A DNA stretch of 64,000 nucleotides, taken from a virus. The stretch lies in the IMG/VR virus record IMGVR_UViG_3300045988_098585; one strand, given 5' to 3'. The notes beneath the pieces are model-generated. The model saw only the letters and a list, made by a program, of their open reading frames with translations. It searched no databases and was not told where the DNA came from. Positions 2,779-61,589 of this stretch are shown here, in pieces; position 1 is the first letter of the stretch, and the number at the start of each line of letters is the position of its first letter. A program made the position numbers and the translations under genes.

Positions 2779-2991
2779 ATGAATATAGAACAATTAGAAC
2801 GTGCTAATCTTTTAGCTAAAAGTTTAATTCCAAAAGCGGAAAGGCTAACAATGCCAGAAACTGCTGGTAAGATAACACTTGGAGAGTGTCTTGATGGTTT
2901 GCTCAAATGCGACAAAGAGTTCTACGCTAAATTCTCGCAACTTGTATCAGAAACAGAACAGAAATTTCGGAAAGAACTTGATGAGCTTTAG
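2779..2991 (+). CDS. hypothetical protein
   Basis: 70-aa ORF flanked on both sides by near-identical stem-loop junctions of about 38 nt. Confidence 0.5.
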   Translation: MNIEQLERANLLAKSLIPKAERLTMPETAGKITLGECLDGLLKCDKEFYAKFSQLVSETEQKFRKELDEL

Positions 2992-2996
2992 TAACT

Positions 2997-3010
2997 ATCC
3001 TGCAAAGGAT
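2997..3010 (+). repeat. post-stop stem-loop junction element (ATCCT-GCAA-AGGAT)
   Basis: Same stem as 2750-2763 with a GCAA tetraloop, followed by ATAAATAGATAGTAATATATG leading into the next start. Confidence 0.6.
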
Positions 3011-3028
3011 ATAAATAGATAGTAATAT

Positions 3029-3226
3029 ATGAGTTTTGAAGTTCCTAAATATCGTTTGCTGGCTTTATTAAAAGCCGAGACAGAACTTAAACTATTAGAG
3101 GATTATGGAGTTGACAACTGGGATTGGTATAAACATGCAATAAATGATACATTTAATGATGGAAAAGATGCCGTTAATAATCTTTCAGATAATGAACTCC
3201 TTAGTGAGTTTAAGGAAATAGAGTAA
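3029..3226 (+). CDS. hypothetical protein
   Basis: 65-aa acidic ORF between two junction stem-loops. Confidence 0.5.
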   Translation: MSFEVPKYRLLALLKAETELKLLEDYGVDNWDWYKHAINDTFNDGKDAVNNLSDNELLSEFKEIE

Positions 3227-3262: not shown

Positions 3263-3961
3263 ATGAAAAAGTACATTGGAACAAAAGTTGTGGATGCCAC
3301 CCCAGCGTGGCGAGTTGATGGCAAAGTGTATCTCAAAGATGAAGCTGTGCCAAAATCTATGAATCGTGAAGACGGTTACAAGGTAGTCTATGAGGGCGGC
3401 TATGAAAGTTGGTCTCCTAAGGACGTGTTTGAGAAAGCCTATAAGCCTTGTGAAACTTTCTTAGATAGAATGAAACTGGAGTTTGAAAGTGAAGTTGATA
3501 AATTTAAAAAGGGTGATACCTTTATTCGCTCTGAGAAGTTTAACGAGCTTACTCTTGTTGCAAGAGTTCTTCTTTATGCGCAGAACAAGACTCAGAAAAT
3601 GTACTGTGGCTTGTTGGAGAACAGGATTGACGCCGCAGAGAATAATAACCCATTGCTAAAGCTATTTGATTTCGGCACAGCCATCAAGTTCTTGGAGGCA
3701 GGTGGAGCTATCCGCCGTAGTGGTTGGCATGGTAAGGGATTGTTTATCGTGAAGCAGGTTCCTTCCCATATCACAGGTGATATTATTCCAAATATGCAGT
3801 CACTCCCTCAGTCTGCCAAGGACATCTTGATGAGCCGTGAAAATCCTCACATTGACTACACAAATCAGATGCTTATCATCAATCCAGACGGAAGAGCAGA
3901 TTCTTGGGTTCCTTCTTCATCTGATGTATTCGCAGAAGATTGGGAAGTTGTAGTTGAGTAA
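3263..3961 (+). CDS. two-domain protein with C-terminal DUF2829 (Tad2-like) domain
   Basis: The C-terminal half FGTAIKFLEAGGAIRRSGWHGKGLFIV...DVFAEDWEVV fits the DUF2829 pattern. The N-terminal part MKKYIGTKVVDATP..GYESWSPKDVFEKAY looks like a separate common phage domain. Confidence 0.65.
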   Translation: MKKYIGTKVVDATPAWRVDGKVYLKDEAVPKSMNREDGYKVVYEGGYESWSPKDVFEKAYKPCETFLDRMKLEFESEVDKFKKGDTFIRSEKFNELTLVARVLLYAQNKTQKMYCGLLENRIDAAENNNPLLKLFDFGTAIKFLEAGGAIRRSGWHGKGLFIVKQVPSHITGDIIPNMQSLPQSAKDILMSRENPHIDYTNQMLIINPDGRADSWVPSSSDVFAEDWEVVVE

Positions 3962-8909: not shown

Positions 8910-10070
8910 ATATAGAACATAATCAATAACCTTTCGGTTAGCTTCATCAATAAGGTTTTGGTCTTTGCGTACATATATAGAGGTTATTCTATGACCACTC
9001 TTATGCCCAAGGCAGTCAGCGATAACGTCCATACTGATACCGATTTCATAAGCAATAGTGGCAAAAGTATGTCTTGCCCAATACGTTGTAATTTTCGGTA
9101 TACCTATCTCTTCGCATATTTTACCGAGAACCCGATTTGAAGATTGGTCGAAACTAAGATACGAAGCATCGCTGTCAAAAGGTATGAGTAAGTGGTTTTT
9201 ACCTTTATATCTGTTTATAATTTCAAGTGCTTCTGGCTCTACTTTTATATTATAATAAGTACCAGTTTTAGCTCTTCGGTATGTTATTCTACCATTATCT
9301 ATTTCTTTTAGCTCAGATAAATCCTTGACGTTAATTCCCATGAGAAAGAAAATTAAAAAGAATATATCTCTGTGCTTTGAGCGGATTGGGGATAGCTCTA
9401 CATTATATAATTTTCTTAATTCCTCAACAGTTAAAGAACGCTTTTTTGTTTCTTCCATTCTGATTGGATACATACTGAAAGCATACTCTTTTACCAGTCC
9501 CTTTTTTCGTGCAAAATTCACTACGGCACGAATATTCCTTAATCTTACAGCAATAGTATTCTTTACGTTTTCTTTTTTTAGGAACTCGCTGAAATTATTA
9601 AGCCATTCTATGTCTATATCTTCAATTCTTAACTCATCATAATCGCAGAATGATTTTATCCTATTTTCTGTTGCGATGTACAACTTCTTAGTTGATTCGC
9701 TATCTTTTTTAGAAATAAAATCTGCCATTTGTGTTTTAAAGAGATGATTTTCGTATTCCTCTTTGCTTTCGTCATTAGAAAGATAAAGTGATAGCTTTTT
9801 GTTTGAAAAATAGCGCAATTTTCCTTCCGCTTGCAACGTGATTACTTTATCATTGATATCTGATAGGCGTTTACCAAGTTTAATGTTTAAAATTCGTTTG
9901 TTGGGTAAGTTTTTGACTTTTTCATTTTTCGCATCCCAATCATTCTCATTTAATTCATAACCTGTTGGTATGTAGATTGCTTTATCTTTGCGAGCAATTT
10001 TAAACTTTAACGGAAACTTTCCGTTATTCAATCTTCGCCTTTTGTCTAATTTGATAGAAATTTTAATCAT
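8895..10070 (-). CDS. int: tyrosine-type site-specific integrase
   Basis: 391 aa from ATG 10070 (track start 10094 is a GTG). ..YWARHTFATIAYEIGISMDVIADCLGHKSGHRITSIYV is the R..HxxR..Y catalytic box. GGGAGACATAACAATG lies upstream of the ATG. Confidence 0.9.
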   Translation of the reverse strand: MIKISIKLDKRRRLNNGKFPLKFKIARKDKAIYIPTGYELNENDWDAKNEKVKNLPNKRILNIKLGKRLSDINDKVITLQAEGKLRYFSNKKLSLYLSNDESKEEYENHLFKTQMADFISKKDSESTKKLYIATENRIKSFCDYDELRIEDIDIEWLNNFSEFLKKENVKNTIAVRLRNIRAVVNFARKKGLVKEYAFSMYPIRMEETKKRSLTVEELRKLYNVELSPIRSKHRDIFFLIFFLMGINVKDLSELKEIDNGRITYRRAKTGTYYNIKVEPEALEIINRYKGKNHLLIPFDSDASYLSFDQSSNRVLGKICEEIGIPKITTYWARHTFATIAYEIGISMDVIADCLGHKSGHRITSIYVRKDQNLIDEANRKVIDYVLYNKRG

Positions 10071-10342: not shown

Positions 10343-10978
10343 TCACTTAATGGTGATACAACAACGAACACGATACCATCCTCTAATATCTGATGTATCG
10401 ACAATAAAGTCCGCAAAGTTTGGATTTACCGAGCGGCAAATTACTTTTGACTCATCATCCTTGTATTGATACACATTCTTAATTATAGCACCATTCACTG
10501 TATCGAGAACGTAAGTACTTCCCCATTCGATGAAAGCCTTTTCGTTTATTTTCTGCACCATCACCTTGCTACCACTTGGAAATTCGGGTGACATACTATC
10601 TCCAGTAACAGAGATGGCGAGGTCTATATTTTCGACTGGTGACATAATCATCTCACATTCGTGGTTCGAAATCTGATATTCAAAATTATTGGGAGTTCCA
10701 CCTTGAGCTGCGACAGGCAAAAGCGGTACAAGGTATGCCGAAGAATCCTTTGCAAAGGTTGGCAATACACCTCCTTTTATCATTTCTCCATTACCAGTTG
10801 CAAGCCAGTCTACATTAATTTCAGGGTATACTTCCTCTATCTTTCTCGCAACCTTGCGTGAAAGAAACTTTGTATTATAGAAATGACTAATACTTAATCC
10901 AAGAGACTCTTGGAACTGTACCATCGACATTCTTTTTGACTTGGCGATTTCTTTCGCTCTTTCTGTAAATGTACTCAT
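10343..10978 (-). CDS. CI/LexA-type repressor (XRE HTH + S24 peptidase)
   Basis: N-terminal HTH (..MSMVQFQESLGLSISHFYN..). The C-terminal part has VTGDSMSPEFPSGSKV (Ser) and ..GAIIKNV (Lys), the S24 self-cleavage fold. Divergent from the early promoter. Confidence 0.85.
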   Translation of the reverse strand: MSTFTERAKEIAKSKRMSMVQFQESLGLSISHFYNTKFLSRKVARKIEEVYPEINVDWLATGNGEMIKGGVLPTFAKDSSAYLVPLLPVAAQGGTPNNFEYQISNHECEMIMSPVENIDLAISVTGDSMSPEFPSGSKVMVQKINEKAFIEWGSTYVLDTVNGAIIKNVYQYKDDESKVICRSVNPNFADFIVDTSDIRGWYRVRCCITIK

Positions 10979-11054: not shown

Positions 11055-11136
11055 CGGTGTGGTTAATAATACTACTCTAATTATGGAGCAAAGTTAGTAA
11101 TAATATATTAATTTATATATAATTATATAGTTAAAA

Positions 11137-11325
11137 ATGGTTATAACATCACAAAAAGACAAAGAACGCATGGTTTGTCTGTCAATTGACAAATACATGG
11201 AGCAAGGCCTCAAGAAGTCTGAGGCTGTGCGGCGGACAATGAGTGACTTCAACTACGCAACAGAAGCTGCTATCTACAACATCTATAAGCGTAATAAAAC
11301 GAAAGGAGGAAATCATAATGACTAA
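11137..11325 (+). CDS. hypothetical small protein, Cro-position
   Basis: 62 aa. First gene after the divergent promoter opposite the repressor. Confidence 0.45.
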   Translation: MVITSQKDKERMVCLSIDKYMEQGLKKSEAVRRTMSDFNYATEAAIYNIYKRNKTKGGNHND

Positions 11326-15303: not shown

Positions 15304-16038
15304 ATGCAATTAGTTACATTAGGAAGTGGAAGCTCTGGTAATGGGTATATCCTACAGAATGATGATGAAGCACTTATCATAGAATGCGGAATGCCATTAA
15401 AAGATGCCGCAGAAGCACTTGGAGGAAATCTTAAAAAGGTTGCTGGTTGCCTGATTACTCATAGCCACAGCGACCACGCAGGGTTTATTCGTCAGTATGC
15501 ACGACCTTTCAATATCTTTGCAACCAAAGGTACTTTGGAAGAGAAAAAGATAAAGGAGGATGATTTTCATTACAATGTCATACCGATGCTGAAAGAGTTT
15601 TGTATTGGTAACTTCGTTATAAAGGCTTTCGATACAGTTCACGACACAAAAGAGCCTTGTGGCTTTATCATTTATCATCCCGATATGGGAGATATGCTTT
15701 TCCTCACGGATAGCCATCATATCAAATATAAGCTATCTTTTCCGCTCGATTATATTCTTATCGAATGTAATCATACCGATTCATTGGTTGAAAAGAGTAT
15801 AAAAGAGGGTATTATTCCTAAAAAGGTTGGCATAAGAGCAAAGGCTACTCACATGAGTTTGGAAAGATGCCTGAACTGCTTGAAAGAGAATAAGTTACAA
15901 AGAACGAAAGCGATTGTACTTATTCATATGAGTGCAAATAATGGCGATGCAGAATTATTCTCTTCTGAGGTAGCGAAAGCAACTGGTAAGGCGGTTTACG
16001 TTGCGAAGAAAGGATTCTCGTTGGAGTTGATGAAATGA
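15304..16038 (+). CDS. MBL-fold metallo-hydrolase (putative recombination nuclease)
   Basis: LITHSHSDHAG is the HxHxDH motif, plus downstream His/Asp residues. Confidence 0.8.
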   Translation: MQLVTLGSGSSGNGYILQNDDEALIIECGMPLKDAAEALGGNLKKVAGCLITHSHSDHAGFIRQYARPFNIFATKGTLEEKKIKEDDFHYNVIPMLKEFCIGNFVIKAFDTVHDTKEPCGFIIYHPDMGDMLFLTDSHHIKYKLSFPLDYILIECNHTDSLVEKSIKEGIIPKKVGIRAKATHMSLERCLNCLKENKLQRTKAIVLIHMSANNGDAELFSSEVAKATGKAVYVAKKGFSLELMK

Positions 16039-17585: not shown

Positions 17586-18140
17586 CTATGTTGTTATATT
17601 AAAGGCTTTCAAAGCTCTCTTCCAATATTTGGTTCTGCTCGACAAGCCGTTTGTTCCACCATTAATTTTCTTTGTTACAGCAAGAATATTATTCTTATCC
17701 GCTACGGCATTCAATCCTCTTATCAGCCAATACCACATACCGCTTTTTACTGCTCCTTTCGGTTGTTCCAAGAGCTTTGGCTCTGCTACAACATCACCTT
17801 TGCAGTACTTTGAGTTCGTGTAAGCTTGATAATTCGCCCTTCCTGTTAAATGCAAGAAGCCACGACCTTTATATCTGTAGCCATCTCCCTTTTGAGTATT
17901 ACCCAACATCTTTGCGAGTTTACCGACCTCATACTTATGGCAATAGTCAGCATTACCGATTTCTCGTATATGTACCAACTCTGCGGTTTCGTGAGCCACT
18001 TGCGCAAGGAAATTTGCCATACGAATGGGAGTGTTTATATTAAAGGCATCAGCATAGGCATTGATATAAGGAAGATATGTATCAATCCTTTCTCCAGCTT
18101 TCGGCATGATGGCTTCCATTTGTTCTTTTGTTACTTTCAT
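17586..18140 (-). CDS. endolysin, glycoside hydrolase family 19
   Basis: ..FLAQVAHETAELVHIREIG...YKGRGFLHLTGRANY.. is the GH19 chitinase-like lysozyme signature. Confidence 0.85.
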   Translation of the reverse strand: MKVTKEQMEAIMPKAGERIDTYLPYINAYADAFNINTPIRMANFLAQVAHETAELVHIREIGNADYCHKYEVGKLAKMLGNTQKGDGYRYKGRGFLHLTGRANYQAYTNSKYCKGDVVAEPKLLEQPKGAVKSGMWYWLIRGLNAVADKNNILAVTKKINGGTNGLSSRTKYWKRALKAFNITT

Positions 18141-23193: not shown

Positions 23194-23781
23194 CTACACA
23201 CTCATCTCAAGCATCTTCGGATAGCCTGTCTTGTAATCGTAGGCCTCTACCTCCTCAATGGTTGTTAGCTCATTTACAGTTGCCTTATGGCTTGCTGTCA
23301 CATTAAAGCACTCAAGGGCATACATTTCGAGCGCAGAGAGCAACTGAATAGCCTTGTCACAATCCACCACCAGTTTGATGCCTTTAAGCCAGAGGGTAGT
23401 TGTTTCCTGGCCTGCCGCCTTGGCAATAGTGGTGGAGTTCATCAATCCCACACGTGTTGCCTTGTCGAGCCAAACAAGCAGTCCGTTCAGCATAAAGCCG
23501 TTCACGGATGACGAGGTATCGTAGGCTATTATCTCTGCTATCTTAGCCTTTTTGGCAAGGGTCAAGGCTTTTTCTGCCCACTTATGTTTCCACGCCTCAT
23601 ACTCTCGTCGTACCTCCTGTTCATCATATTCTGATGCAGATGCAGAACCCTCGACACAAGAGTATGCGTCCATGTCTGCATCTTTAACTGCATCGAAACG
23701 AACAAGTATCTTGTTTCCTACTTTTTCTACTGCGACAAAATCCTTTGCTGTGATAAATGTCTTTACAAAATTTACTTTCAT
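23194..23781 (-). CDS. fibre-associated protein, DUF4376-like; paralogue of 25878-26423
   Basis: C-terminus TTLWLKG..YALECFNVTASHKATVNELTTIEEVEAYDYKTGYP parallels TTLWLDG..YAKDCYNVTQTHLDKVVELQTIDALIAYDITAGYP. Confidence 0.6.
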   Translation of the reverse strand: MKVNFVKTFITAKDFVAVEKVGNKILVRFDAVKDADMDAYSCVEGSASASEYDEQEVRREYEAWKHKWAEKALTLAKKAKIAEIIAYDTSSSVNGFMLNGLLVWLDKATRVGLMNSTTIAKAAGQETTTLWLKGIKLVVDCDKAIQLLSALEMYALECFNVTASHKATVNELTTIEEVEAYDYKTGYPKMLEMSV

Positions 23782-24119
23782 AACTTTTTATTTTTTAATT
23801 CAACGAGAGATGGAGAGTCGGAGAGACAAGCGTAGAACGGAATCGCCATATAATTGTTCTTCTTGATGTTGCCGTTGATAGACATAGTGAAGTAGTAGCT
23901 GCCGATGGCGTTGGCCTGGGTTGAAGTCCATTTATAATAACTGAACGTTGTCTTGCTGACATTGAGGTCTGGATATTTCTTATTGATAGCGTCTATCACG
24001 ATATCAATATTCTGCCATGTCAGCTCCCATTGGTTAGCTGTCGGCAGGTAGCCTTGATAAAGCTTATCTCCATTCGTAATCGTAGAACTATAGCAATAAT
24101 CAGCAGCAGCCGTAGTCAA
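23778..24119 (-). CDS. DUF1566/lectin-like domain ORF, in frame with the upstream fibre ORF
   Basis: No ATG (track M is TTG 24119). ..AADYCYS..GYLPTANQWELTW..YYKWTSTQ resembles the DUF1566 signature. It is separated from 24150-25865 only by a TAG plus 10 open codons. Confidence 0.5.
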   Translation of the reverse strand: MTTAAADYCYSSTITNGDKLYQGYLPTANQWELTWQNIDIVIDAINKKYPDLNVSKTTFSYYKWTSTQANAIGSYYFTMSINGNIKKNNYMAIPFYACLSDSPSLVELKNKKL

Positions 24120-24149
24120 CTCACGCTCGTCACCTTCCGCTATGATGGT

Positions 24150-25865
24150 CTATGTCGCTAACAATCCGTTATACACGAAGCGAGACCAGTTCGTGCCATT
24201 ATTGTCTCGACCATCAATAGGTATGTTTTTAAACTCTACGTTCTGATTACACCATTGCTTAGTTATGGCTACCTTGGAGAAGTATGCCATCTTGTCAATA
24301 CTGATAAGTATATCTCCCTTATAGCGTTGAGTAGAAAATGTAGCGATACGCACAAACATCAGCTTGCTATTATCATTTCCGCTTGCCTCCCAGTCATCGT
24401 AAGTCCACTGCTTATTGGTGTCATCAATGAGCCAAATACCACTCTCGTAAGGACGGTAGACGAAGTTGAAACGATAACTATCTGCAATAGCAGTTCTTGC
24501 GATAGAGTAGCGGTCGTACTGCTCATACATACCGTCTATCTTGTCAACGCTTACTGTGTAAGATGTACCATTCTTGATCTCAACGACAGCCTTACCTTCG
24601 GCATCCATGACGTATTCGGTCTTTTTACCCGATATGGTGACATACGCCTTGCCGCCTTCCCATGGAGTGACGTTCCCGCTTTCGTCAGCCTTAGACATTT
24701 TGATGGTTAACCGCTCCATCTTTTCGGTTTCAGCGATATAGTTTGCATCAATAATCCTGTTACCTACGCTTGCTACATGCTGCACAGGGTCTATGATGTT
24801 ACACTTTGGGACGTATGGGAACACAACTTTATAGGTTGCACCCTTGGTGATAGTAAACTCAGCCTGACCGTTTACGTCTGTAGTGTACTGATGAGGGTCT
24901 AAGCCATTGTTAACATAAACGTTAATAACCAATCCCTCCATGCTTACGCCTTCCAAAGTGGTAGTACAGTTCACCGTCACATGCTCGTCAGTATCGGTAA
25001 GATTTACTGATTTTACCTCTCCGTTGCGGTTCGTTACTTTCAATACATTTCCCTTCAGTTCTGCGTTGACCATCTCTGCGCCTAATGTTGCAGTCTCTGC
25101 TGCTTTGATGGCGGTGTCAAAATCGCTCTTACGCTTTGTTTCTGCGTCCACACGGGTTTTCTCAGCTTTCACTCTCTCACCTTCTGCGGCAACTCTGTCT
25201 GCCTCTGCTTGCTTACGAGTTACTTCTGCTTTGACACGACTATTTTCAGCATCAACCCTCGCAGCTTCTGCCGACGCACGTCCTTCTTCGGCTTTTGTCC
25301 TACTACCTTCAGCAGACACCCTTGCCTCCTCAGCAGACACACGTCCTTGTTCGGCAGTCCCCCTCAGAGTCTCGGCTTCCTTTCTCGCTTCCTCGTTAGT
25401 ATTGAGGGTATCGTTTGTCTCCTTGTTGTTTTTCATAGCCTCGTTAGCCTTGCTGATGAGGTCAGACAGCTCCACGGTAGGAGGGAGGATAACCATAGCG
25501 GTATCCATCTCCACGCTGTTGTCGCCCTCATCGGTCTCTCCAAACTCGGTGTCAGCATCGGCATTGTTTGACACGATGGCAAACTGAGGGTATTCGTTGC
25601 TCCGCCAGTCGTTGCCGAATATCTTACCCTTCACCTCGATGGCATACGTACCGAGGCTCATCTTATCACCATCTACTCTCGCAAGGAGTACATTATCCTC
25701 CTTTACATCAATCTCAAACGCAAGAGGGATGCGTTTGAACTGATTGCATACCTGCACCACTACATCGGTACAGGCTGGCAAGGGGAAAGCCTTCGCTTGC
25801 CCCTCCACCATCTTCATCACTGGTATCTTCAGTGTGAAGTCGTTACCTTTAACGATTTTCTTCAT
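24150..25865 (-). CDS. tail fibre / receptor-binding protein
   Basis: 571 aa. Contains 12 AExxRxx heptads followed by two beta-sandwich-like segments (..VNVYVNNGLDPHQYTTDVNGQAEFTI.., ..AYVTISGKKTEYVMDAEGKAVVEI..). Confidence 0.7.
   Translation of the reverse strand: MKKIVKGNDFTLKIPVMKMVEGQAKAFPLPACTDVVVQVCNQFKRIPLAFEIDVKEDNVLLARVDGDKMSLGTYAIEVKGKIFGNDWRSNEYPQFAIVSNNADADTEFGETDEGDNSVEMDTAMVILPPTVELSDLISKANEAMKNNKETNDTLNTNEEARKEAETLRGTAEQGRVSAEEARVSAEGSRTKAEEGRASAEAARVDAENSRVKAEVTRKQAEADRVAAEGERVKAEKTRVDAETKRKSDFDTAIKAAETATLGAEMVNAELKGNVLKVTNRNGEVKSVNLTDTDEHVTVNCTTTLEGVSMEGLVINVYVNNGLDPHQYTTDVNGQAEFTITKGATYKVVFPYVPKCNIIDPVQHVASVGNRIIDANYIAETEKMERLTIKMSKADESGNVTPWEGGKAYVTISGKKTEYVMDAEGKAVVEIKNGTSYTVSVDKIDGMYEQYDRYSIARTAIADSYRFNFVYRPYESGIWLIDDTNKQWTYDDWEASGNDNSKLMFVRIATFSTQRYKGDILISIDKMAYFSKVAITKQWCNQNVEFKNIPIDGRDNNGTNWSRFVYNGLLAT
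25125..25376 (-). repeat. 12 consecutive AExxRxx heptads (coding)
   Basis: AETLRGT AEQGRVS AEEARVS AEGSRTK AEEGRAS AEAARVD AENSRVK AEVTRKQ AEADRVA AEGERVK AEKTRVD AETKRKS (aa 164-247). Confidence 0.9.
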
Positions 25866-25877
25866 ATAGCTATAAAA

Positions 25878-26423
25878 TTAAATTGTTAATCGTACTTTTT
25901 CTGGATAACCTGCCGTAATATCATAGGCTATCAATGCGTCTATCGTCTGTAGCTCCACAACCTTGTCAAGATGGGTCTGCGTAACATTGTAGCAGTCTTT
26001 GGCGTAGACTTCTATCTTACTGATGAGGTCTTGAGCTGTGTCAATAGGCAGGGTATAACACTCGCCGTCGAGCCACAGGGTCGTTTCCGTTCTCCCCATT
26101 CGCATAAGTCGCTCATTGCCCTGATATACCCTATCTCTTGTCTCGAAATCGAGCCAGTGAGCCTTGTCGTTGAGATAAAACGTATTCACCTCTGCGCTCT
26201 TATCGTACTCCGTTATCTGCTCGATGCACTTGTTTCTCAGAGCCTCTGTCAGCTGTTCATCAGTAGGCTCGGCATCGGTATTCATGCCGAGCAGCACGCA
26301 GTCGTATAGATACTCACCGTCTTCTGTCTTGCGTTCGTTCATAGCAAGACGCACCTCATTATTTTTCCATGTCGCAACCTTCGTTTCCAAAGGCGTAGCA
26401 TACAATTCCTTATATGTTATCAT
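25878..26423 (-). CDS. fibre-associated protein, DUF4376-like; paralogue of 23194-23781
   Basis: 181 aa, immediately downstream of the giant fibre gene. See the paralogy noted above. Confidence 0.6.
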   Translation of the reverse strand: MITYKELYATPLETKVATWKNNEVRLAMNERKTEDGEYLYDCVLLGMNTDAEPTDEQLTEALRNKCIEQITEYDKSAEVNTFYLNDKAHWLDFETRDRVYQGNERLMRMGRTETTLWLDGECYTLPIDTAQDLISKIEVYAKDCYNVTQTHLDKVVELQTIDALIAYDITAGYPEKVRLTI

Positions 26424-26429
26424 ATCCGC

Positions 26430-29400
26430 TTAGTAATTATTATTGTTGCTCATTATTCCTGCGTCAAGATTACCGAAAGTGGTTTCCGTCTGTATTGAAT
26501 AGATTTTTTCGTGAAATCCGGGTGCCATGTACGTTGCGCTAAAGGAAGCTATCTGTACATAGAAGGATGGCCTTGTCACAAACTGCCCCTTCTTGATGGC
26601 AGGCACCAGTTTTGTGTTGTCGTAGACCGTGGCATCCCCAGTAAGGAATACGCCATCCGCAAGATTTGTCAGCGCACCATTCTTCACCATTGTGCGGCTC
26701 GTAAACGTCCTTCCGTCGGCTGCACTTGCGAGTTCGTAGGTACTCAATCCGTTGGCCGAGTCGGCTACTATCTTTCCGTTCACTCTTGGTGCTGAGTAAC
26801 GATACAGGGTTGTCGTTTTACCCGTCGCACCCTTAACGAAAAGAATGTAGTTGTTGTCCTTCGTTGCCGTGTACCACGACTTCGTTGTGTCAACCCACGG
26901 CAGGTCTACATTCTCTCCGAGCGGAGTCGTCAGTCCTGCGTCCTCTGCTTTGATATATTGCGCAGAAGTTATCTTCGCGTCGGTCTTGCTTAGCGAGGCG
27001 ATACCAGCAGGGCCGAGGTCGTAGAGAAAGTTTCCGTTGTCGTCGTAGTACGACAGCACGGCCTGTCCCGAACTGTTCAGACCAAAGCGGATGTTTGCAG
27101 TTCCTGCCTTGCCGTAGATATTGATAAGGCCATCGGCTATCCTCACCATCTGTCCGTTGAGTCCTTGCGATGTAAGCATCTGCGCCAGTATCAGAGCCGC
27201 ATTGATGGCTCCGTCTGTAAAGAGCGCGGCTGTCGTAGTCTGACCTGTAGAGAGCGTGTTCTCCACCTTGATTTTCTCGCCATACAGAGTTACTCCGCTC
27301 GACGTAATCTCAAGTCCTGCCGCCTTGGCCGTGGCTCTGTCTATGAGGTCGGTCTTCCGTTCTGTATAATCAGTAAGTTGTGCGCCTTCCTCCAACTTCG
27401 GCTTTGTCACCCAAGCTTCAGTATCGCCTGGAACACGTATCAGCACCTTGTCTGGAATTACCTCTGCTCCCTCGCCAGTATAGTCCTCTATTCGCCAATG
27501 CACCCAGTACCGCTTATAGGTCGAGGTGAGTGCGAGCTGTACGAATCCGTCAGCCCAGCCGACCGGATATACGTTTCCTTCGCAGGTTTCTGTAAATACG
27601 TTTGCATGAACGCTGTCTCCATAGAGAAAAACGTTGATGTTCCCGCTGCCCTTGGCAACGAAGGAGAACACATAGTCCTGATTCTTTACTATTCTCGCCT
27701 GCCCAGAAAGGGTAGCTGTTGTTGGAAATTTATATTGCAAGGCTTCTGTGTACAGAGACTCTGCCGAGTTATTTTTGTTGTACAATATACCGTAGCAGCC
27801 TTCGTATTTACCAAACAAAATCAGTCCGCTGGCAAACTGAAGATTGCTGTTGTCAGACGATCTGGTCAGTGCCATCGTATCATCCAAAAGGTTTCCTCCC
27901 ACATAGTCGTAGTCCGTTTCCGCAGGAGTCCAGCCTGTGTACTCGCTTCCTTCCTCCAACATCGGCATACATATCCATCCGTTACCAGAGGCAGTATAAC
28001 CAAATGTTCCGTCCACGGTTATGCCATTGTAGACAAAGATATTCACCTCGATAAACTCTGCGTCGCCCGTATTGAAGGTGTAGTTCACCTGCCTCCACTG
28101 GTTCACCTCTTCCTCCTTCGTCAGCCAATCCATTTTACCCGAGGTGGCAGTAATTCTGTCCCCTCTACCACTATTCAGCGCAGCCATCTTGAAAACCTCT
28201 GAATGAACCTGTAAGTCCTTCGTGTCGCACTTTATCCATGCCGAGAAAGTGTAGTCGGTGTTCTTCTTCACAGCGATGCCGTTGACGTGCTGTCCCCAGA
28301 AAAGTCCATTATACTGATGCTTTCCGTTACCAGTCACCGAGAAGCGGATGGCATTATGGCCGTTCACGCCCTGTGTTATCGTAGGCTGGAAGAGGCCGTC
28401 CGAATAATATATATCACCCTTCCTCGTCAGTGCCGTATCTCGCAGTAGGTTATGCCGTCCTTGCTGGCTCTGAGTAACACTGAGAGTAATCTCCTTAGCT
28501 GTCTGCTTGATAGTAGATGTGTAGGCGTTGAGAACGGTAGGATTACTTCCTTTCAGGTCTTTCTCCAGTGCCTCAAACTTCGACTGGTACTGCTTGGCCG
28601 TAGCCTTTACACTGCCCATGTACTTTGTCACATTCACAGAGAATGGAACCTGTGTACTGTAGCTCTTCCCTCCGAGAGAGAATGCGATTGTGATAAATCC
28701 CTCGCTCACCGACACCTTGTCTCCGCTCGCCAGAGTGGTAGTGTTCACAGAATTGAGCTTCACCTTTATGTATCCTGTAGCCAAACTTGCCGCAGCCGTA
28801 CAGTTCTGCATATAGCTCACCTTTACGTCTGAGCACTCGTTAGTAACATTCTCGCCACCTCTCATCACCTTTACTCGTCCTTCTGCCGTGGTGTCCGACA
28901 CGATGCCGTCATCGTTAGTGTCGAGCACGATGGGCTGTACGAGAAGTATGCTCACTCCGTCATTTCCGTCTGCTCCAGGCTTTCCTTGCTCTCCTTTCTC
29001 GCCCTGCGGTCCTTGTGCGCCCGTTTCGCCCTGCGCACCTGTTTCTCCTTTAGGCCCTTGTGGTCCTTCGTCACCTCTGTCTCCCTTGTCTCCTTTCTCA
29101 CCTTTTTCTCCCGACAGCACCTTCTGCCAGTCACTGCTTGCGTCCGAAGGCTCTTGGCTTGTTCCGTTCTCATTGATACAAGTCCACAGGGCGTTGTCAT
29201 GGTTCACTTGGTCGTAGTAGGCATAGCTTCCTGCCTTCCACTCGCCTCTGTAGTTCACCATGTGTATGGTGTCACCGCTTGGAGATACCCATTCAAACAG
29301 ATTGCTGTAGAATCTCGACCCGTCAGGTGAAATGACGAACACTTCCTTTCCGTTGTGTGTGTATCTGTTCACACCATTGAAGCCCACAATCCTCGGTGTG

Positions 29401-32081
29401 TTCTCTCCTGTACTCTCCAGTATCAGTACACCTTGCCTTGTCGTGTCACTCCTTGAACCATCAAGCACAATAGTATCTCCTTCTTCAGGAATACCACCTA
29501 TCTCTGCCGTTGCAAACTCCTCAGTCATCGAGTCTAACGACAAAGAGTGCTTGCCGATTACAATCCACGAGAACATCTGCCCGCCATACAGCTCGTTGCC
29601 ATATTCGTCATATATCTTCTCGTTCACACTCGATACGCCGTGCTCAGGGATTGTTCTCCAGTAGCTCTTGTTGCTTGTGTTCATGGTTCCTGCGGTCAAC
29701 CTTCCGATAGTCTTGCACCTAACTTGGTCGCCCTCTCTCCACAGGTTCTGCGTAGCCGTAGTTCCGTCGTCAGCAAGAAGATAACAGAGCCAGCCTTCAC
29801 ACTTATCTACTACAGAAGTCTTATGCCATTCGCTATCTTCATTATCCCATATTACAGGCACAACCTTCACTATCTTGCTTCCTGCGCCCGACAGATACAC
29901 ATTACCGCCTGCATACGACAGTTTTCTTACCTCCAGTTGATTAAAGATAGCCTTTCCCCAAATGGTAAGATTGGTGATAAAGGCATGATACTTGCCGTTC
30001 TTCTCCTTCTCAACAGAAAAGCCTTGTTCAGCCGCATTGTCGTAATCGAAAGACTTGATGGCATTAAACACCGCATCGCCCAACTCCGTAATCATAGCAT
30101 TGTTGCCAAACTTCGCTCCCATCATCAAATCAGCAAGACCTTTGGCAATAAGACCTTTCGCAAATGTGATTAATCCCTGCGCAGTGTCGTTGTATTGCTT
30201 TGACAGAAAATATCTTGTGCCGTACTTTGCAATTATATTGCTAAGTTGTGATGTTGTATATCCTCCATTATTAGAAGCTGAGCCTGATGCGATAATAGAA
30301 TCAACTTTTTCTTTAAGCTGAGTTGTTGAACCTTTAACAGCTTCGTTTCCTATAGTGATTACTTGCTCAAAGTTATAATCAATATTGGTTGACAACTTTA
30401 ACACTCTTGTTGTTAACAGATATCCATTTCCATCATTATAGGTAACCTTTTGCCCTATTTGTAGACAGGGATTATCTTTTTCAAAGACCTGTGGATAAGA
30501 CTTTAGGCTATAATTATTCAAATCAGATTTAAGACGCTGAATCTCCTTTATAGCCTCGTCAAAAAGTCGCTTTTGAGCATCTTTAGTGTATATGCTTTCA
30601 GCCATTGCAATATTATATAGAACAGTAATATTGCACTTATATGTTGGCTTACTTTCTCCTCGTGGAATTATCATTTCACTCTCATTCGTAGGTATTATAA
30701 GATTATTATCCTCCTGATAGATAATCTCATAATCACCAGTTAAAACCGAAAAATTACCACCACTCACATCATCGGAGGCGTGAGAAGAAGAAGCTTCTTT
30801 ATGATAAGAAAGTTCAAATCCTACATAATCACCATTCGTTCCACGTCCAGCGAGTGGGGTAGAGAGTGCGTCTTTATTAAAGTTCGCTTCAAAAGAGCAC
30901 GACAAATTTTTCCCATTAATAAGCAGTTTATCCGTAACCTCGAAATCATACCAATAATGCACAACGCCATCATCATTTGTTGTGTTAACTATTGCTTTTC
31001 CTTCGATTCTTTCTGTAGTCGGATAAGCAAGACGAATATACCACACAGTGAACGTCTTGTAAGTTGCCACAGAACCATCACTATTATATGTTAAAGGTAT
31101 CTTCTTTTGGGTTTCCGAGTCAATTACATACTTTTCTCGCCCTCGTACATTATAAACATACGTATTAAGAGATGGGTATATCTGAGAAAACTCAAGAACT
31201 TTAGTAAAAAGCGGTTCTTTTTTATCTTTTCTAATATCTATAGTAGAGAATTTATCTATAGTATAAGGTAACTTTTCTCCGTCAATATCAAGCGTTCCCA
31301 TAGAAGGAGCTAATTGTAGACGGATATCTGACGAAGCTATATTCTCCCCTTTGTTATTTACTTGTGTAATGTTTCTTGTACCACCGAACACAGCGAAGGA
31401 GTTATAGTAATTTTCCTTGCTATTATTTACCGAAGGAATACCTACATTTTTACCTACTTCAAGCGTTATATCTCCATCATCAATACACGTCTTGCATATA
31501 TAGATAATCTCATTATCGTAATCTATATGCCATTCACAATTATTGCCAATAGCGTTACAGATAGCCGTAAGTGCAGATATGAAATCGTTATTGTCAAAAG
31601 ATACATTAACCACATTCGCATTTGTTGTGTCATACACAACATTCCATCCTGCTGTACCAAAGGCAATCTCATTATTCAGAAAATCTTTCAACTTATTCGC
31701 AATTGTATTCACCGTTCCCACAAACGACCATTCATGTTGTTTTATTTCTTCATTTTGCGAGTTGCGTGTGCGAATATAGAAAGGAATTTTTGATAAAATC
31801 ATCTTTGGATGATGAAACTCTGGCGTATATTTCCAAGCCATTTCGTTGCTCTGCGTAGGCTCGTATGATTCCAAGAGAAGAAACTGACGAGTAACTTCTC
31901 TAACTTTATCAATTTTGTATGTATGCACAATGTATGCTCCAACAGGCAGGACAACCTTTTCGGCACTATTCCATGAGAGGGAGATATAGTCTGATTTAGA
32001 TAATTCCTCCTCCCTAATAGCCGAATTGGTTATCTCTGCTTGCATAAGCACCCTTCCGTTCACATCATAGATATTAATCAT
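26430..32081 (-). CDS. giant tail tip/fibre protein (Tal-like N-terminus, collagen-like stalk, C-terminal binding modules)
   Basis: 1883 aa, directly after the TMP and the Dit-position gene. It contains 17 G-X-Y triplets. Base composition changes sharply inside the gene near 30.1-30.25 kb. Confidence 0.75.
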   Translation of the reverse strand: MINIYDVNGRVLMQAEITNSAIREEELSKSDYISLSWNSAEKVVLPVGAYIVHTYKIDKVREVTRQFLLLESYEPTQSNEMAWKYTPEFHHPKMILSKIPFYIRTRNSQNEEIKQHEWSFVGTVNTIANKLKDFLNNEIAFGTAGWNVVYDTTNANVVNVSFDNNDFISALTAICNAIGNNCEWHIDYDNEIIYICKTCIDDGDITLEVGKNVGIPSVNNSKENYYNSFAVFGGTRNITQVNNKGENIASSDIRLQLAPSMGTLDIDGEKLPYTIDKFSTIDIRKDKKEPLFTKVLEFSQIYPSLNTYVYNVRGREKYVIDSETQKKIPLTYNSDGSVATYKTFTVWYIRLAYPTTERIEGKAIVNTTNDDGVVHYWYDFEVTDKLLINGKNLSCSFEANFNKDALSTPLAGRGTNGDYVGFELSYHKEASSSHASDDVSGGNFSVLTGDYEIIYQEDNNLIIPTNESEMIIPRGESKPTYKCNITVLYNIAMAESIYTKDAQKRLFDEAIKEIQRLKSDLNNYSLKSYPQVFEKDNPCLQIGQKVTYNDGNGYLLTTRVLKLSTNIDYNFEQVITIGNEAVKGSTTQLKEKVDSIIASGSASNNGGYTTSQLSNIIAKYGTRYFLSKQYNDTAQGLITFAKGLIAKGLADLMMGAKFGNNAMITELGDAVFNAIKSFDYDNAAEQGFSVEKEKNGKYHAFITNLTIWGKAIFNQLEVRKLSYAGGNVYLSGAGSKIVKVVPVIWDNEDSEWHKTSVVDKCEGWLCYLLADDGTTATQNLWREGDQVRCKTIGRLTAGTMNTSNKSYWRTIPEHGVSSVNEKIYDEYGNELYGGQMFSWIVIGKHSLSLDSMTEEFATAEIGGIPEEGDTIVLDGSRSDTTRQGVLILESTGENTPRIVGFNGVNRYTHNGKEVFVISPDGSRFYSNLFEWVSPSGDTIHMVNYRGEWKAGSYAYYDQVNHDNALWTCINENGTSQEPSDASSDWQKVLSGEKGEKGDKGDRGDEGPQGPKGETGAQGETGAQGPQGEKGEQGKPGADGNDGVSILLVQPIVLDTNDDGIVSDTTAEGRVKVMRGGENVTNECSDVKVSYMQNCTAAASLATGYIKVKLNSVNTTTLASGDKVSVSEGFITIAFSLGGKSYSTQVPFSVNVTKYMGSVKATAKQYQSKFEALEKDLKGSNPTVLNAYTSTIKQTAKEITLSVTQSQQGRHNLLRDTALTRKGDIYYSDGLFQPTITQGVNGHNAIRFSVTGNGKHQYNGLFWGQHVNGIAVKKNTDYTFSAWIKCDTKDLQVHSEVFKMAALNSGRGDRITATSGKMDWLTKEEEVNQWRQVNYTFNTGDAEFIEVNIFVYNGITVDGTFGYTASGNGWICMPMLEEGSEYTGWTPAETDYDYVGGNLLDDTMALTRSSDNSNLQFASGLILFGKYEGCYGILYNKNNSAESLYTEALQYKFPTTATLSGQARIVKNQDYVFSFVAKGSGNINVFLYGDSVHANVFTETCEGNVYPVGWADGFVQLALTSTYKRYWVHWRIEDYTGEGAEVIPDKVLIRVPGDTEAWVTKPKLEEGAQLTDYTERKTDLIDRATAKAAGLEITSSGVTLYGEKIKVENTLSTGQTTTAALFTDGAINAALILAQMLTSQGLNGQMVRIADGLINIYGKAGTANIRFGLNSSGQAVLSYYDDNGNFLYDLGPAGIASLSKTDAKITSAQYIKAEDAGLTTPLGENVDLPWVDTTKSWYTATKDNNYILFVKGATGKTTTLYRYSAPRVNGKIVADSANGLSTYELASAADGRTFTSRTMVKNGALTNLADGVFLTGDATVYDNTKLVPAIKKGQFVTRPSFYVQIASFSATYMAPGFHEKIYSIQTETTFGNLDAGIMSNNNNY
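28956..29111 (-). repeat. collagen-like G-X-Y run (coding, 17 triplets)
   Basis: GEKGEKGDKGDRGDEGPQGPKGETGAQGETGAQGPQGEKGEQGKPGADGNDG. Confidence 0.9.
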
Positions 32082-32524
32082 AATTTTTCTCTATCGTTAG
32101 GATTATACTCTGTTAATTTGAGGACAAATTTACCTTTTTTTAGCCCATAATCACCAAACTGCGAACATTGCGTATAAACAAGCTTAAAAACCCTCTTTAA
32201 TCGAGGAACTTTTAGACAAAACTCTCCAGAATAAGCTATCTTGTTAAGGAAAGCTTCATATTTTTGCAGATAATCCTCTTCCGAATTTCCTTCAAGAAAG
32301 AAAGAGATACTTACGTCACGCTTATCTTTCTTTGCATATTTCGGTGCTGCGATAACCGATTGTCCGTGTTCTAATCGACTATCATTTGTTACATAACCTT
32401 TTACTGGGGCAGGGGTTAACAAGGCTTCTCGCCAACCCCTTACCAATGTAATACCGAAAGTATCAAGGTCAATATAAGCTGAATCCGCTTCATCGACCAA
32501 TTTAATAAATGCATTATTCTTCAT
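32078..32524 (-). CDS. distal tail protein (by position)
   Basis: 148 aa between the TMP and the Tal-like gene, with ATGA overlap downstream. Confidence 0.4.
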   Translation of the reverse strand: MKNNAFIKLVDEADSAYIDLDTFGITLVRGWREALLTPAPVKGYVTNDSRLEHGQSVIAAPKYAKKDKRDVSISFFLEGNSEEDYLQKYEAFLNKIAYSGEFCLKVPRLKRVFKLVYTQCSQFGDYGLKKGKFVLKLTEYNPNDREKL

Positions 32525-58268: not shown

Positions 58269-59060
58269 ATGAACGATGTGCAAATTTTTAACTCTCCTAT
58301 GTTTGGAGACCTCCGTGTTGTTCGGGATGAGAAAGGCGAACTGCTTTTCTGTCTAAAGGATGTTTGTAATTCACTCGAATTACAAGTTACAAAGGTAAAG
58401 GATAGACTTACCCCCTTCCTCCCTACTATTAAGGTAGGGGTAGTAACTGGCAAGAAGTCTGATGGTTCAGATTCTATTCAGTATATAGATATGTACTTTG
58501 TTACAGAGCCAGACCTTTATCGTTGTATTTTCCAATCTCGCAAGTCTTCCGCTCGCAAGTTCCAAGATTGGGTTTTTGATGAGGTTCTTCCAGCTCTTCG
58601 AAAAGATGGTGGCTATATCGTTTCAACCGATGAAGATACCGAGGAAGACATCATTGCTCGTGGTCTTATCGCTGCGAAGGCAGCACTATCACGTAAAGAG
58701 CAGCGTGTTCGTGAGCTTGAAGCTCAGACCGAACAGCAGGCGCAGACCATCGGCATTCAGCAGAAAGAATTGACTGTAGCCGCACCAAAGGTAAAGTACT
58801 ACGATGATACACTTGCATCAACGGACTGCCTTACCACCACACAGGTTGCTGACGACCTTGGCATCAGCGCAAAAGCACTTAATCAGCAGCTCGCCAATGC
58901 AGGTATTCAATACTTCCAATCAGGTTCTTGGCATTTGAAGGGTGTGTTCCGTGAGTGGAAGCTTGCAAGTACAAGAACCTATAATTATATCAAGGGTGAT
59001 GGTTCTACGGGTACAAAGGTAAACCTCGTATGGAATCAACGTGGCAAGCGTTTTATCTGA
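58269..59060 (+). pseudogene. Bro-N/KilAC antirepressor, C-terminally truncated by the IS21 insertion
   Basis: Start trimmed to MNDVQIFNSPMFGDLRVV (Bro-N). KilAC-like ..YYDDTLASTDCLTTTQVADDLGISAKALNQQL.. The stop TGA (59058-60) is the first 3 nt of the IS. The last 32 codons lie at 61692-61790. Confidence 0.8.
59051..59057 (+). repeat. target-site duplication TTTTATC (left)
   Basis: The identical heptamer directly flanks the other IS end at 61685-61691. Confidence 0.8.
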
Positions 59061-59175
59061 CAGTATCGGCGATTCGGTACCACTATAGCGCATGAATCGG
59101 TACCATCATAGCACTGCATTCGGTACCATCGTATCACTTGAATCGGTACCATCATAGCGCACCAATCGGTACCAA
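59058..59175 (+). repeat. IS left end: 5 copies of TCGGTACCA phased every 23 bp
   Basis: Copies start at 59074, 59097, 59120, 59143 and 59166. Confidence 0.85.
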
Positions 59176-59214
59176 AAAGATGTAAAGTTCTGCTCATGTA
59201 AAATAATAACCGCC

Positions 59215-59222
59215 TATCTTTG
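59215..59222 (+). promoter_or_regulatory. -7 box TATCTTTG for istA
   Basis: CCTATCTTTGCAAT, with the box ending 27 nt upstream of ATG 59250. Confidence 0.5.
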
Positions 59223-59249
59223 CAATAGAATTTTAAATTTTGCATAGAT

Positions 59250-60806
59250 ATGGCACAAAGTAATGTAAACATGAGCAAATTAAAACGTTCATTTCAAATG
59301 CTAGCGGCAAAAATACCGCAACGCACCATTTGCGAGCAACTACACATGGGACGTGGTGTACTTAACCGGTACAAGACCTTGGCGGATTCCCAAGGTTTGT
59401 CCTATGGTGTGATAGGCTGCATGAGTGACGGGGAAATAGAATCTTTCCTCCAGTTGTCCAAACCCACAGCAGCCCCTTCCTCCCAACGTCAGGTGCTGGA
59501 CGGACTGTTGCCAGAATATGTATCAGACTTGTCGCATAACCGCTACCTCACCATTCAAGCCCTGCACGAGTCATACAAGAAGGAGCATCCCGACGGATAT
59601 GGATACACCCAGTTCAAGAAGTCAATCCGTGAGTATCAGTACTCACACAACCTCAGCTTCCATAACACCTATATTCCTGGGGAAGAGATGCAGATTGACT
59701 TTGCCGGCGATGCCCTGTGGCTTACCGACCCGAAGACAGGTGAGCTAACCAAGGTTGTCGTCTTGGTCTGTATCCTGCCATACAGCGGCTTGGGATTTGC
59801 CAAGGCTATGTACAACGCTTCCATGGAGAATTTCTTCGGCGGTATATCCGATGCCTTCTCTTACTTCGGCGGAACGACTCGCATAGCCAAGAGTGACAAC
59901 ATGAAGCAGTGGGTGAAGAAATACGACCGCTACGAGCCAGCGTTCAATGATGCAGCCGTGGAATGGGCCGCCTACTACGATACATCACTCCAAACCTGCA
60001 GGGTTCGCACTCCCAGGGACAAAGGTCCAGTCGAGGGACTCGTCCAAAAGACATACAATGCCGTCTACGCTCTGCTACATGACGAGGTGTTTTACAATCT
60101 ACCGAGTATGAATGCCCGTATCTATGAGTTGATGGACGGCTTCAATGAAAAGCCGTCCAGAACGACAGGGAGAAGCAGACGTGACATCTTCGAGGCGGAA
60201 GAGCAACCTACGTTGGGCAAACTGCCCATGACTCCATACCGCTTCAGATATCGCAAGGAGGTGAAACTGTCCGGGACCTATCACGTCATGGTTGACAAGC
60301 ACAACTATAGCGTGCCATACCAGTATGTCGGGCAAAAGGTGAGCGTACTGTGGGACTTGGATACCGTGGAGGTTTACTCCGGGAGTTCTCGCATAGCCAT
60401 CCATCAGCGTCGCCAAGGATCTGGGTACAGCACACTTGACGAGCATATGCCAGACAAACATCTTGCCTACAAGCACGGACAGGGATATAACGCCGCCTAT
60501 TTTCTGGAGGAGGCGGCATTGGTTGGCAGCAACACCACTGCCGCAGTCCAATCCATCCTCAATCGCACGAAGCATGTCGAGCAGTCGTACAAGTCCTGCC
60601 AGGGAGTCCTGTCTCTCAAGCGCAAGTATGGCAAGGAGCGTCTGGAGAAGGCCTGCAAGCGTCTGGCAGGTTGTTCATCCATCACCTACACGACCATCCG
60701 CAACGTGTTGGAGAAGAACCTTGACCAAGTTGACGGGGAAGAAACCGTCTCAAATGTGCCACAGAACGACTATGTGAGAGGCGCAGAGGCATTTATGAAC
60801 ATTTAA
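59250..60806 (+). CDS. istA: IS21-family transposase IstA
   Basis: 518 aa. N-terminal HTH and a DDE-type core (..EEMQIDFAGD.., ..AKSDNMKQWV.., ..PRDKGPVEG..). Confidence 0.85.
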   Translation: MAQSNVNMSKLKRSFQMLAAKIPQRTICEQLHMGRGVLNRYKTLADSQGLSYGVIGCMSDGEIESFLQLSKPTAAPSSQRQVLDGLLPEYVSDLSHNRYLTIQALHESYKKEHPDGYGYTQFKKSIREYQYSHNLSFHNTYIPGEEMQIDFAGDALWLTDPKTGELTKVVVLVCILPYSGLGFAKAMYNASMENFFGGISDAFSYFGGTTRIAKSDNMKQWVKKYDRYEPAFNDAAVEWAAYYDTSLQTCRVRTPRDKGPVEGLVQKTYNAVYALLHDEVFYNLPSMNARIYELMDGFNEKPSRTTGRSRRDIFEAEEQPTLGKLPMTPYRFRYRKEVKLSGTYHVMVDKHNYSVPYQYVGQKVSVLWDLDTVEVYSGSSRIAIHQRRQGSGYSTLDEHMPDKHLAYKHGQGYNAAYFLEEAALVGSNTTAAVQSILNRTKHVEQSYKSCQGVLSLKRKYGKERLEKACKRLAGCSSITYTTIRNVLEKNLDQVDGEETVSNVPQNDYVRGAEAFMNI

Positions 60807-60820
60807 ATATATATAGTAAC

Positions 60821-61552
60821 ATGAACTTACAAGAAACCATCATACAACTCAACGAGTTGAAGCTCAGAGGTATGTCATCCTCCTTCGAGGCCATGACCAG
60901 CCTTCCTGTACAGAACCGCCCATCCCTGGAAGTCGCCATCTCCAAGATGGTGGATGCAGAGGTGCAGGACAGACGAGATCGAAAGACCGCCATGTATCTA
61001 AAAATCAGCAAGCTTAGATATACGGCGCTCTTAGAGGATGTCATCTGTGGAACAGACCGCAACTTCACCAAGGATGACCTTGCCGCCATTGCCGACTGTG
61101 CCTTCATACGCAGGCATGAAAACTTGCTCATACAAGGAAAGTGTGGCTGCGGAAAATCCTTTCTTGCCTGTGCCCTTGGAAGACAGGCTTGCATGCTAGG
61201 CTATAGAACTCTCTATCTCAACATGAACAGCTTTGTGGAGAAAGTTGCACTCAGCAAGCTGGATGGGTCGTACCTGAAGATGATAACCAATCTGGAAAAG
61301 TATGACTTGCTCATATGGGATGACTTCGGGTTGCAGCCAATAGATGACAAGACCAGACTCGCAATGCTCCAAATTTTAGAAGAGAGATATGAGAGAAAGT
61401 CTGTCATTATCGCCTCACAGCTTCCTATTGCCAAATGGTATGATTACATAGGTGATCCTACCTTGGCAGATGCCATTATGGACCGTTTGGTTGCAAATGC
61501 AAGTAAAATAGAGTTAAAAGGCGATTCTATGCGCCAGAAATTGAAAAAATAG
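60821..61552 (+). CDS. istB: IS21-family helper ATPase IstB
   Basis: Walker A GKCGCGKSFLACALG and Walker B DLLIWDDFG, a DnaC-like AAA+ protein. Confidence 0.9.
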   Translation: MNLQETIIQLNELKLRGMSSSFEAMTSLPVQNRPSLEVAISKMVDAEVQDRRDRKTAMYLKISKLRYTALLEDVICGTDRNFTKDDLAAIADCAFIRRHENLLIQGKCGCGKSFLACALGRQACMLGYRTLYLNMNSFVEKVALSKLDGSYLKMITNLEKYDLLIWDDFGLQPIDDKTRLAMLQILEERYERKSVIIASQLPIAKWYDYIGDPTLADAIMDRLVANASKIELKGDSMRQKLKK

Positions 61553-61554
61553 AT

Positions 61555-61562: not shown

Positions 61563-61589
61563 CAAATTGAAAAGCAGAACTGAAATCTT

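Follow-up and report, generated by a model that had tools for sequence, protein, structure and literature searches.

A recent amber codon in the lectin-like tip domain of a tail-fibre gene in a gut phage that lost its diversity-generating retroelement cassette

In the UGA read-through of Qbeta A1 and in the frameshifts of Listeria phages A118 and PSA and of T7 10B, the recoding site is conserved, lies at a module boundary and gives two products that both fold. Some gut phages, among them crAss-like and Lak phages of Bacteroidota, are known to recode TAG to Gln (genetic code 15). Amber alleles and recent pseudogenes of temperate phages are recognized by a one-base change from a sense codon to a stop, intact orthologues, a downstream frame without decay and a split of the gene by gene callers. 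Moreover, the targets of diversity-generating retroelements (DGRs), including BPP-1 Mtd, that of the Bacteroides Hankyphage and the DUF1566-type proteins, are tail-fibre proteins with a C-terminal lectin-like fold and a variable region (VR) of approximately 100 nt at the end of the gene. In this study, a tail-fibre gene interrupted by an in-frame TAG was analysed in a stretch of 64,000 nucleotides of viral DNA (IMG/VR virus record IMGVR_UViG_3300045988_098585), the whole of which is called the window below. The feature looks like an ordinary amber allele and not like a new recoding mechanism, and the gene belongs to the DGR-diversified, lectin-tipped fibre class in a genome from which the DGR cassette has been lost. 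Translation probably terminates at the TAG, which would yield a 571-amino-acid (aa) fibre without its lectin-like tip, the 123 codons beyond being the fresh remnant of a recent nonsense allele.

The layout of the locus was confirmed as a sequence-only reading of the window had given it. A minus-strand open reading frame (ORF) at 24150-25865 starts with ATG, encodes 571 aa and ends in ..NGLLAT followed by TAG (24150-24152). Past the stop, 123 further codons are open in the same frame (TIIAEGDERE-L-TTAAADYCY...SLVELKNKKL) and are closed by TGA at 23778-23780, which overlaps the ATG of the following DUF4376 gene as ATGA. Ten open codons separate the TAG from a downstream ORF that has no ATG of its own at its start; TTG at 24117-24119 is the sole canonical start codon near the 5' end of the downstream part, and two ATGs lie far downstream, at ..FTM.. 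and ..NYM... The features of the locus are as follows.

24153..25865, minus strand: first 571 codons of the fibre gene (ORF list and translation)
24150..24152, minus strand: in-frame TAG at codon 572, derived from CAG (Gln) according to the locus and protein alignments
24126..24167, minus strand: codons 567-580, GLLAT-stop-TIIAEGDE, predicted first long alpha-helix of the C-terminal domain (AlphaFold2 model)
23781..24149, minus strand: remaining 123 fibre codons, the rest of the putative lectin-like tip domain and an 8-codon tail (homology, profile and Foldseek)
24117..24119, minus strand: TTG, a conserved internal Leu codon that is called as the start of a '113-aa ORF' (codon comparison)
23822..23939, minus strand: former DGR VR, codons ~643-681 (homology to the VR of the relative L003)
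23797..23812, minus strand: interval holding the cassette junction 23805/23804 (BLAST breakpoints against L003)
23194..23781, minus strand: DUF4376 tail-fibre-like gene (Pfam and PHROG)

A query of 283 aa that crosses the junction, with Q put at the TAG, retrieved 32 proteins, most of which covered 92-100% of it as a single polypeptide. In their alignment (A1), the TAG column held Q in approximately 24 of the 32 and I, T or K in distant homologues, and YNGLLAT-Q-TIIAEGDER was the best-conserved stretch of the fibre protein, nearly invariant as a whole and invariant throughout the family in TIIAEGDE. The codon at the position of the TAG was CAG in nine of nine related loci (L001, L002, L003, L007, L008, L015, L016, L017 and L019, with L015 and L016 being contigs of Prevotella metagenome-assembled genomes, MAGs). 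Furthermore, intact alleles were found within the 90%-identity cluster of the 571-aa product, namely P0165, with a length of 695 aa (571+1+123), and the uninterrupted P0163 and P0167. The loci of the intact alleles (L017-L019) have the gene order of the window, L017 and L019 also share the ATGA overlap with the DUF4376 gene, and the fibre gene of L017 is 93% identical to that of the window, with CAG at codon 572. A stop at this site was absent from every relative compared (32 proteins and nine loci), and none of 50,697 deposited phage genomes was matched in megablast and tblastn searches, so that no cultured relative is available. Thus, the check proposed with the sequence-only reading gave one continuous ORF with a sense codon, CAG or Gln, in all close relatives. 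These comparisons show that the two ORFs are the halves of one ancestrally continuous fibre gene of approximately 695 codons, and because of this homology their common frame is not a matter of chance. Since the homologues carry a sense codon and the stop is not conserved, the TAG is a derived nonsense mutation, a single C>T transition from CAG (Gln572). The sequence-only reading had put read-through first and a recent nonsense mutation third among its explanations; with a sense codon in all relatives, the third holds and the first does not.

The position of the TAG within the protein points the same way. A profile (A3) built on the C-terminal region of the fibre family matched 129 clusters at 50% identity, and the matches nearly always spanned profile positions 2-5 (..RFxYNGL.., approximately nine residues before the TAG) to 119-120 (..PFYAC), which delimits a domain of approximately 120 aa that is nearly always C-terminal in proteins of 400-1400 aa. 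When the C-terminus of the intact homologue P0003 was modelled with AlphaFold2 from 44 diverse family sequences, the mean predicted local distance difference test score (pLDDT) was 84 and approximately 95 from residue 31. The TAG corresponds to Q37 of this model, midway along the first helix (residues 32-45), so that the 571-aa product would stop five residues into that helix; the TAG is thus predicted to lie inside a folded domain and not in a linker. An earlier model (281 aa, 32 close sequences) was discarded, as its pLDDT was 57 and below 50 around the TAG, and its Foldseek matches were meaningless.

As to the identity of the domain, Foldseek against BFVD gave template modelling (TM) scores of 0.57-0.58 at probability 1.0 over 128 columns with phage proteins, several of them annotated as DUF1566, including the DUF1566 domain-containing protein of phage cr10_1 (TM 0.57, probability 1.0, E 2.9e-3). 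The best match in the PDB was the C-terminal domain of Legionella Lcl (8q4e; probability 0.90, E 0.11, TM 0.26-0.31), followed by weak matches to C-type lectins. A PDB-sequence profile search was set aside, for it returned spurious cadherin matches only, to the beta-sandwich part. With Pfam, the window fragment had no match at E<=1, no DUF1566 or FGE-sulfatase model was matched by the 32 whole homologues (E<=5) or by 10 distant relatives (E<=0.1), and no Pfam model of any kind matched the C-terminal domain among family members or distant relatives. The predicted structure therefore supports a DUF1566/C-type-lectin-like fold, presumed to be the ligand-binding tip, in a family that current Pfam coverage has not yet captured. 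The likeness to DUF1566 and Lcl lectin-like domains suggested from sequence alone was borne out for the fold and found no Pfam match, and the domain differs from the DUF1566-type DGR targets in being missed by the DUF1566 and FGE-sulfatase models. A separate family member, P0161 (127 aa), has the first 31 residues of the fibre (MKKIVK.NDFTL.IPVMKMVEG...FPLPA) joined straight to the lectin-like domain and is apparently a large internal deletion variant.

The TAG allele is real. The 571-aa product and the 113-aa gene call are both found in exactly this form on 32 contigs of gut metagenomes from JGI/IMG, ENA and Logan assemblies, and the recurrence of the same split in independent assemblies from several data sets excludes a sequencing error. 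The exact Q version of the strain's protein was not present in the collection that yielded these contigs. Three fetched examples (L004-L006) were 99.99-100% identical to the window over 15-22 kb. All carriers are thus one recent, near-identical clone, and for that reason they hold no evolutionary information on selection downstream of the TAG. Several carrier contigs come from PRJNA217052, with SRR2250647, SRR2245642 and SRR2244320 among the carrier samples; papers citing the accession describe it as a Fiji community cohort rich in Prevotella/Segatella. The two ends of an 85,457-bp carrier contig overlap by approximately 127 bp, and the genome is thus a circle of approximately 85.3 kb, 64 kb of which are in the window. 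The flanks contain an integrase, an S24 repressor-like gene, an SPP1-type portal and a terminase, so that the phage is temperate and tailed, of siphovirus-like type; its host is probably Prevotella/Segatella. In contrast to laboratory amber mutants, the allele is carried by a strain that circulates in gut metagenomes and has a complete circular genome.

The mutation appears to be very young. Between the window and L017, codons 484-695 showed no synonymous difference; the differences were Y528D, D551N, the TAG and nine nonsynonymous codons, eight of which lie in the 100-nt core of the VR, with codon 643 just upstream of it. Outside the VR, no difference from L017 was found downstream of the TAG (69 non-VR codons and the tail). 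The singletons specific to the window downstream of the TAG were two synonymous and one nonsynonymous, a divergence too small to tell decay. The youth of the mutation accounts for the intact downstream frame, which is therefore no evidence for translation; because there is no difference of any kind from the nearest allele, the comparison has no power to tell a remnant from a translated segment. When the two sides of the TAG were compared with four relatives, the ratios of nonsynonymous to synonymous rates (dN/dS) reflected the history before the mutation; they can neither date it nor test for a remnant.

Disruption of the fibre gene is not confined to the window. The gene is frameshifted at differing positions in L001/L002 (a 1-nt gain in the coiled-coil repeats at ~10000-10020), L003 (a 1-nt loss in an A run at 9975-10001, between ..WEASG and NDNSKL..), L007 (~2990-3030) and L008 (5233-5506), the frame changes of the last two being in the coiled-coil region. 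Disruption of the fibre thus seems to be tolerated, although some of these frameshifts may be assembly errors in repeats. Programmed frameshifting was considered and rejected, since the positions differ by lineage and intact 695-aa alleles exist; at the one junction inspected, that of L003 (CGGAATG), there was no slippery heptamer.

The second feature of this gene is its DGR ancestry. In the relative L003, as in known DGRs, the fibre gene is followed by a 120-aa Avd-like gene (bAvd-like, weak, E 0.073), a 100-nt template repeat (TR) at 11130-11229 and a 385-aa reverse transcriptase (RT; RVT_1, E 1.3e-13), and 20 of the 21 mismatches between its VR (10439-10538) and the TR fall at TR adenines. 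The RT is also present in the Prevotella MAG contig L016. The VR of the window (23822-23939) is homologous to that of L003 and maps to the last strands of the domain. In the window, tblastn with the RT and Avd of L003 gave nothing with E <0.2 and no TR, that is, no second VR copy, was found; no RT was found in any near-identical locus. The BLAST breakpoints place window 23805 at L003 10555 and window 23804 at L003 12406, so that 1850 bp of L003 are skipped, and these are the Avd-TR-RT cassette of the relatives. Consistent with this, the last eight codons of the window ORF (VELKNKKL-stop) correspond to the end of the L003 RT (VEFKNKKL-stop) and overlap the DUF4376 ATG as it does, and the 23805/23804 junction is common to the window, L007, L008, L017 and L019. 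The window genome thus differs from known DGR systems in having no Avd, TR or RT, the cassette being cleanly gone at 23805/23804.

In the VR, dN/dS was 1.2-7.9, compared with 0.09-0.44 in the flanks; in comparisons with L017 and L019, nucleotide differences in the VR fell at adenine positions of the L003 TR in 8 of 10 and 9 of 11 cases. It was also observed that the window, L017 (10001-12088) and L019 have the same junction and no Avd, TR or RT at the locus, yet nine VR codons differ, all of them nonsynonymously. This suggests recent DGR mutagenesis in trans from a co-resident relative, or recombination limited to the VR. DGR mutagenesis was rejected as the source of the TAG itself, which is a C>T change at a site that is not adenine-templated and lies approximately 210 nt upstream of the VR.

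Taken together, the order of events would be as follows. The DGR cassette would have been lost first at the fibre locus, and CAG would later have mutated to TAG in the first helix of the lectin-like tip domain. Translation would then stop at the TAG and give a 571-aa fibre without the tip, whereas the 123 codons would remain as an undecayed remnant that gene callers report as the '113-aa TTG ORF'. The strain may persist since the tip is dispensable, the phage being temperate and able to persist as a prophage, and having other fibre proteins, namely a 1883-aa protein with collagen-like and fibre PHROG matches and the DUF4376 protein. A DGR-diversified, receptor-binding tip would thus have been dismantled stepwise in a circulating gut phage, first by loss of the cassette and then by a nonsense codon, which suggests that the phage can persist without the fibre tip. 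The 571-aa and 113-aa calls in at least 32 public contigs should be annotated together, as a single fibre gene that is marked as interrupted.

Several points weigh against termination with a dead remnant. Circular assemblies of approximately 85.3 kb occur in several PRJNA217052 samples and the allele is on 32 contigs, so that the truncation is not obviously costly, and the lack of an obvious cost would agree as well with some functional full-length fibre being made at a low level. No second lesion is present in the 123 downstream codons, as would also be expected if they were still translated. In addition, the search for a suppressor tRNA covered the phage genome alone, all but approximately 2.4 kb of it.

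These points bear mainly on a leaky TAG, which survives best among the alternatives and is nevertheless unlikely. A near-cognate tRNA-Gln, or an amber suppressor of the host or of a co-infecting phage, would now and then insert Gln or a similar residue at the TAG, and virions would have mainly short fibres along with a functional minority of full-length 695-aa fibres; the ancestral residue, Gln, is indeed what near-cognate or classical amber suppression inserts. The widespread occurrence of the strain as a full circular genome, the intact downstream frame and the preserved ATGA coupling to the next gene are in its favour, but the recent date of the mutation accounts fully for the frame being intact, and no relative conserves the stop. 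Moreover, TAG is a normal terminator in this phage: the stops of 68 confident window genes were 34 TAA, 18 TAG (26%) and 16 TGA, and the adjacent DUF4376 gene itself ends in TAG. The median in-frame extension past the stop was 6 codons for TAG, 9 for TAA and 5.5 for TGA, and the other long extension past a TAG (201 codons after 17586-18140) is a separate gene with an ATG two codons past the TAG. The fibre gene is the only split gene in the window.

No tRNA was found by ARAGORN in the window or in L001-L014; these include L010 1-9917 and L013 1-9073, which supply 19 of the 21.4 kb of the genome that lie outside the window and bring the coverage to approximately 97% of the phage genome. Rfam likewise gave no matches, tRNA included. 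The amber suppressor tRNA (anticodon CUA) that the sequence-only reading proposed to look for is thus absent from this part of the phage genome. A structured element after the stop was not found either, since the 116-nt fold at the TAG was, with a minimum free energy of -20.6, less stable than shuffled controls, the mean of which was -24.8 (z = +1.37). Programmed read-through or suppression, proposed earlier as a source of a long (about 695 aa) and a short fibre isoform, is accordingly not supported, because no relative shares the stop, its position is inside a helix, no stabilizing RNA structure was found at it, approximately 97% of the phage genome gave no tRNA and TAG is a normal terminator. 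The resemblance to Qbeta A1, A118/PSA and T7 10B is formal, consisting of a stop followed by an in-frame open extension; unlike in those systems, the stop is not conserved, falls within a helix and has no recoding signal that was found.

Reinitiation at the TTG, which the sequence-only reading had also offered, is less probable still. In such a split fibre, ribosomes that terminate at the TAG would start again at 24117-24119 and make a 113-aa tip protein that sits non-covalently on the 571-aa shaft. Terminating ribosomes can reinitiate within a distance such as 10 codons, which is the distance here, and gene callers do annotate the 113-aa ORF; however, the TTG existed beforehand as a Leu codon, which close relatives also have as TTG, and the Prevotella MAG copies have ATC (Ile) in its place. 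An AGGTGA motif stands 10 nt upstream of the TTG but merely codes for the invariant EGD. The 20 nt upstream of the TTG are G-rich and contain 25% A, compared with an average of 48% A at 68 real window starts, and Shine-Dalgarno-like motifs are little enriched at the genes of the window (4-mers 19% against a background of 15%; 5-mers 13% against 5%). Furthermore, a product started at the TTG would be without helix 32-45 and the invariant TIIAEGDE, which are inside the domain with a pLDDT of approximately 95, whereas stand-alone homologues of approximately 132 aa all include that helix, and at least one of them, P0043, looks like a truncated gene call. Initiation at the TTG is therefore unlikely, and we infer that the 113-aa ORF is a gene caller's rescue of the fibre remnant and not a small lectin gene.

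A conditional fibre is a far more speculative proposal, to which we give very little credence. The amber codon would act as a switch, and full-length fibre would be made only with an amber-suppressing tRNA(Gln), for example that of a co-infecting TAG-recoded Prevotella phage of the Lak-like or crAss-like type. If this were true, host range would depend on the translation machinery of another phage, and the suppressed product would be exactly wild type, with Gln.

A sequencing or assembly error, or a genome-wide reassignment of TAG to Gln as in code 15, is effectively refuted: TAG and CAG do differ by one base, and the phage is like the code 15 gut phages in being Bacteroidota-associated and having TAG where relatives have Gln, but the identical allele occurs in 32 contigs from different pipelines and samples, this is the single such TAG in 64 kb, TAG ends 26% of the genes with short extensions beyond, the standard code leaves all large late genes uninterrupted, and the window and 19 of the further 21.4 kb yielded no suppressor tRNA.

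Returning to termination at the TAG, the 571 codons that would still be translated comprise an N-terminal part, Ala/Glu/Arg-rich coiled-coil-like repeats, immunoglobulin/prealbumin-like beta-sandwich domains and approximately 10 residues of the C-terminal domain. Their PHROG matches are virion structural and minor tail proteins, and fibre homologues have weak SdrD_B, CarboxypepD_reg and SpaA matches. The gene lies in the tail module, after a tape-measure-like gene and the 1883-aa fibre gene, and the DUF4376 gene (195 aa, 23194-23781, minus strand) matches PF14301 with E 2.2e-07. In window 23778-32090 (minus strand), the 1883-aa, 181-aa and 571-aa genes and the 123-codon remainder, consecutive in the tail module, are all in one frame; at the first three junctions this is coincidental, since in each case a separate ATG follows the stop by no more than a few codons.

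Elsewhere in the window, an IS21-family insertion element occupies 59058-61684, with an IstA-like ORF at 59229-60806 and an IstB-like ORF at 60821-61552. It is present in the window and L014 and absent from L013, which is otherwise 99.98-100% identical, so that the element is polymorphic within the strain. Two ORFs on the plus strand (3263-3961 and 15304-16038) are candidate anti-defence genes according to Pfam marks taken from identical contigs, one being Tad2-like/Sequestin (PF11195, PF21825) and the other having an Apyc1-like metallo-beta-lactamase fold (PF23023 Anti-Pycsar_Apyc1). Just outside window position 1, QueC, PTPS (QueD-like) and radical-SAM (QueE-like) genes are clustered at 56-2343 of L009/L010, suggesting that the phage DNA carries 7-deazaguanine modifications. 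Finally, the terminase of L012 contains an intein (PF14890).

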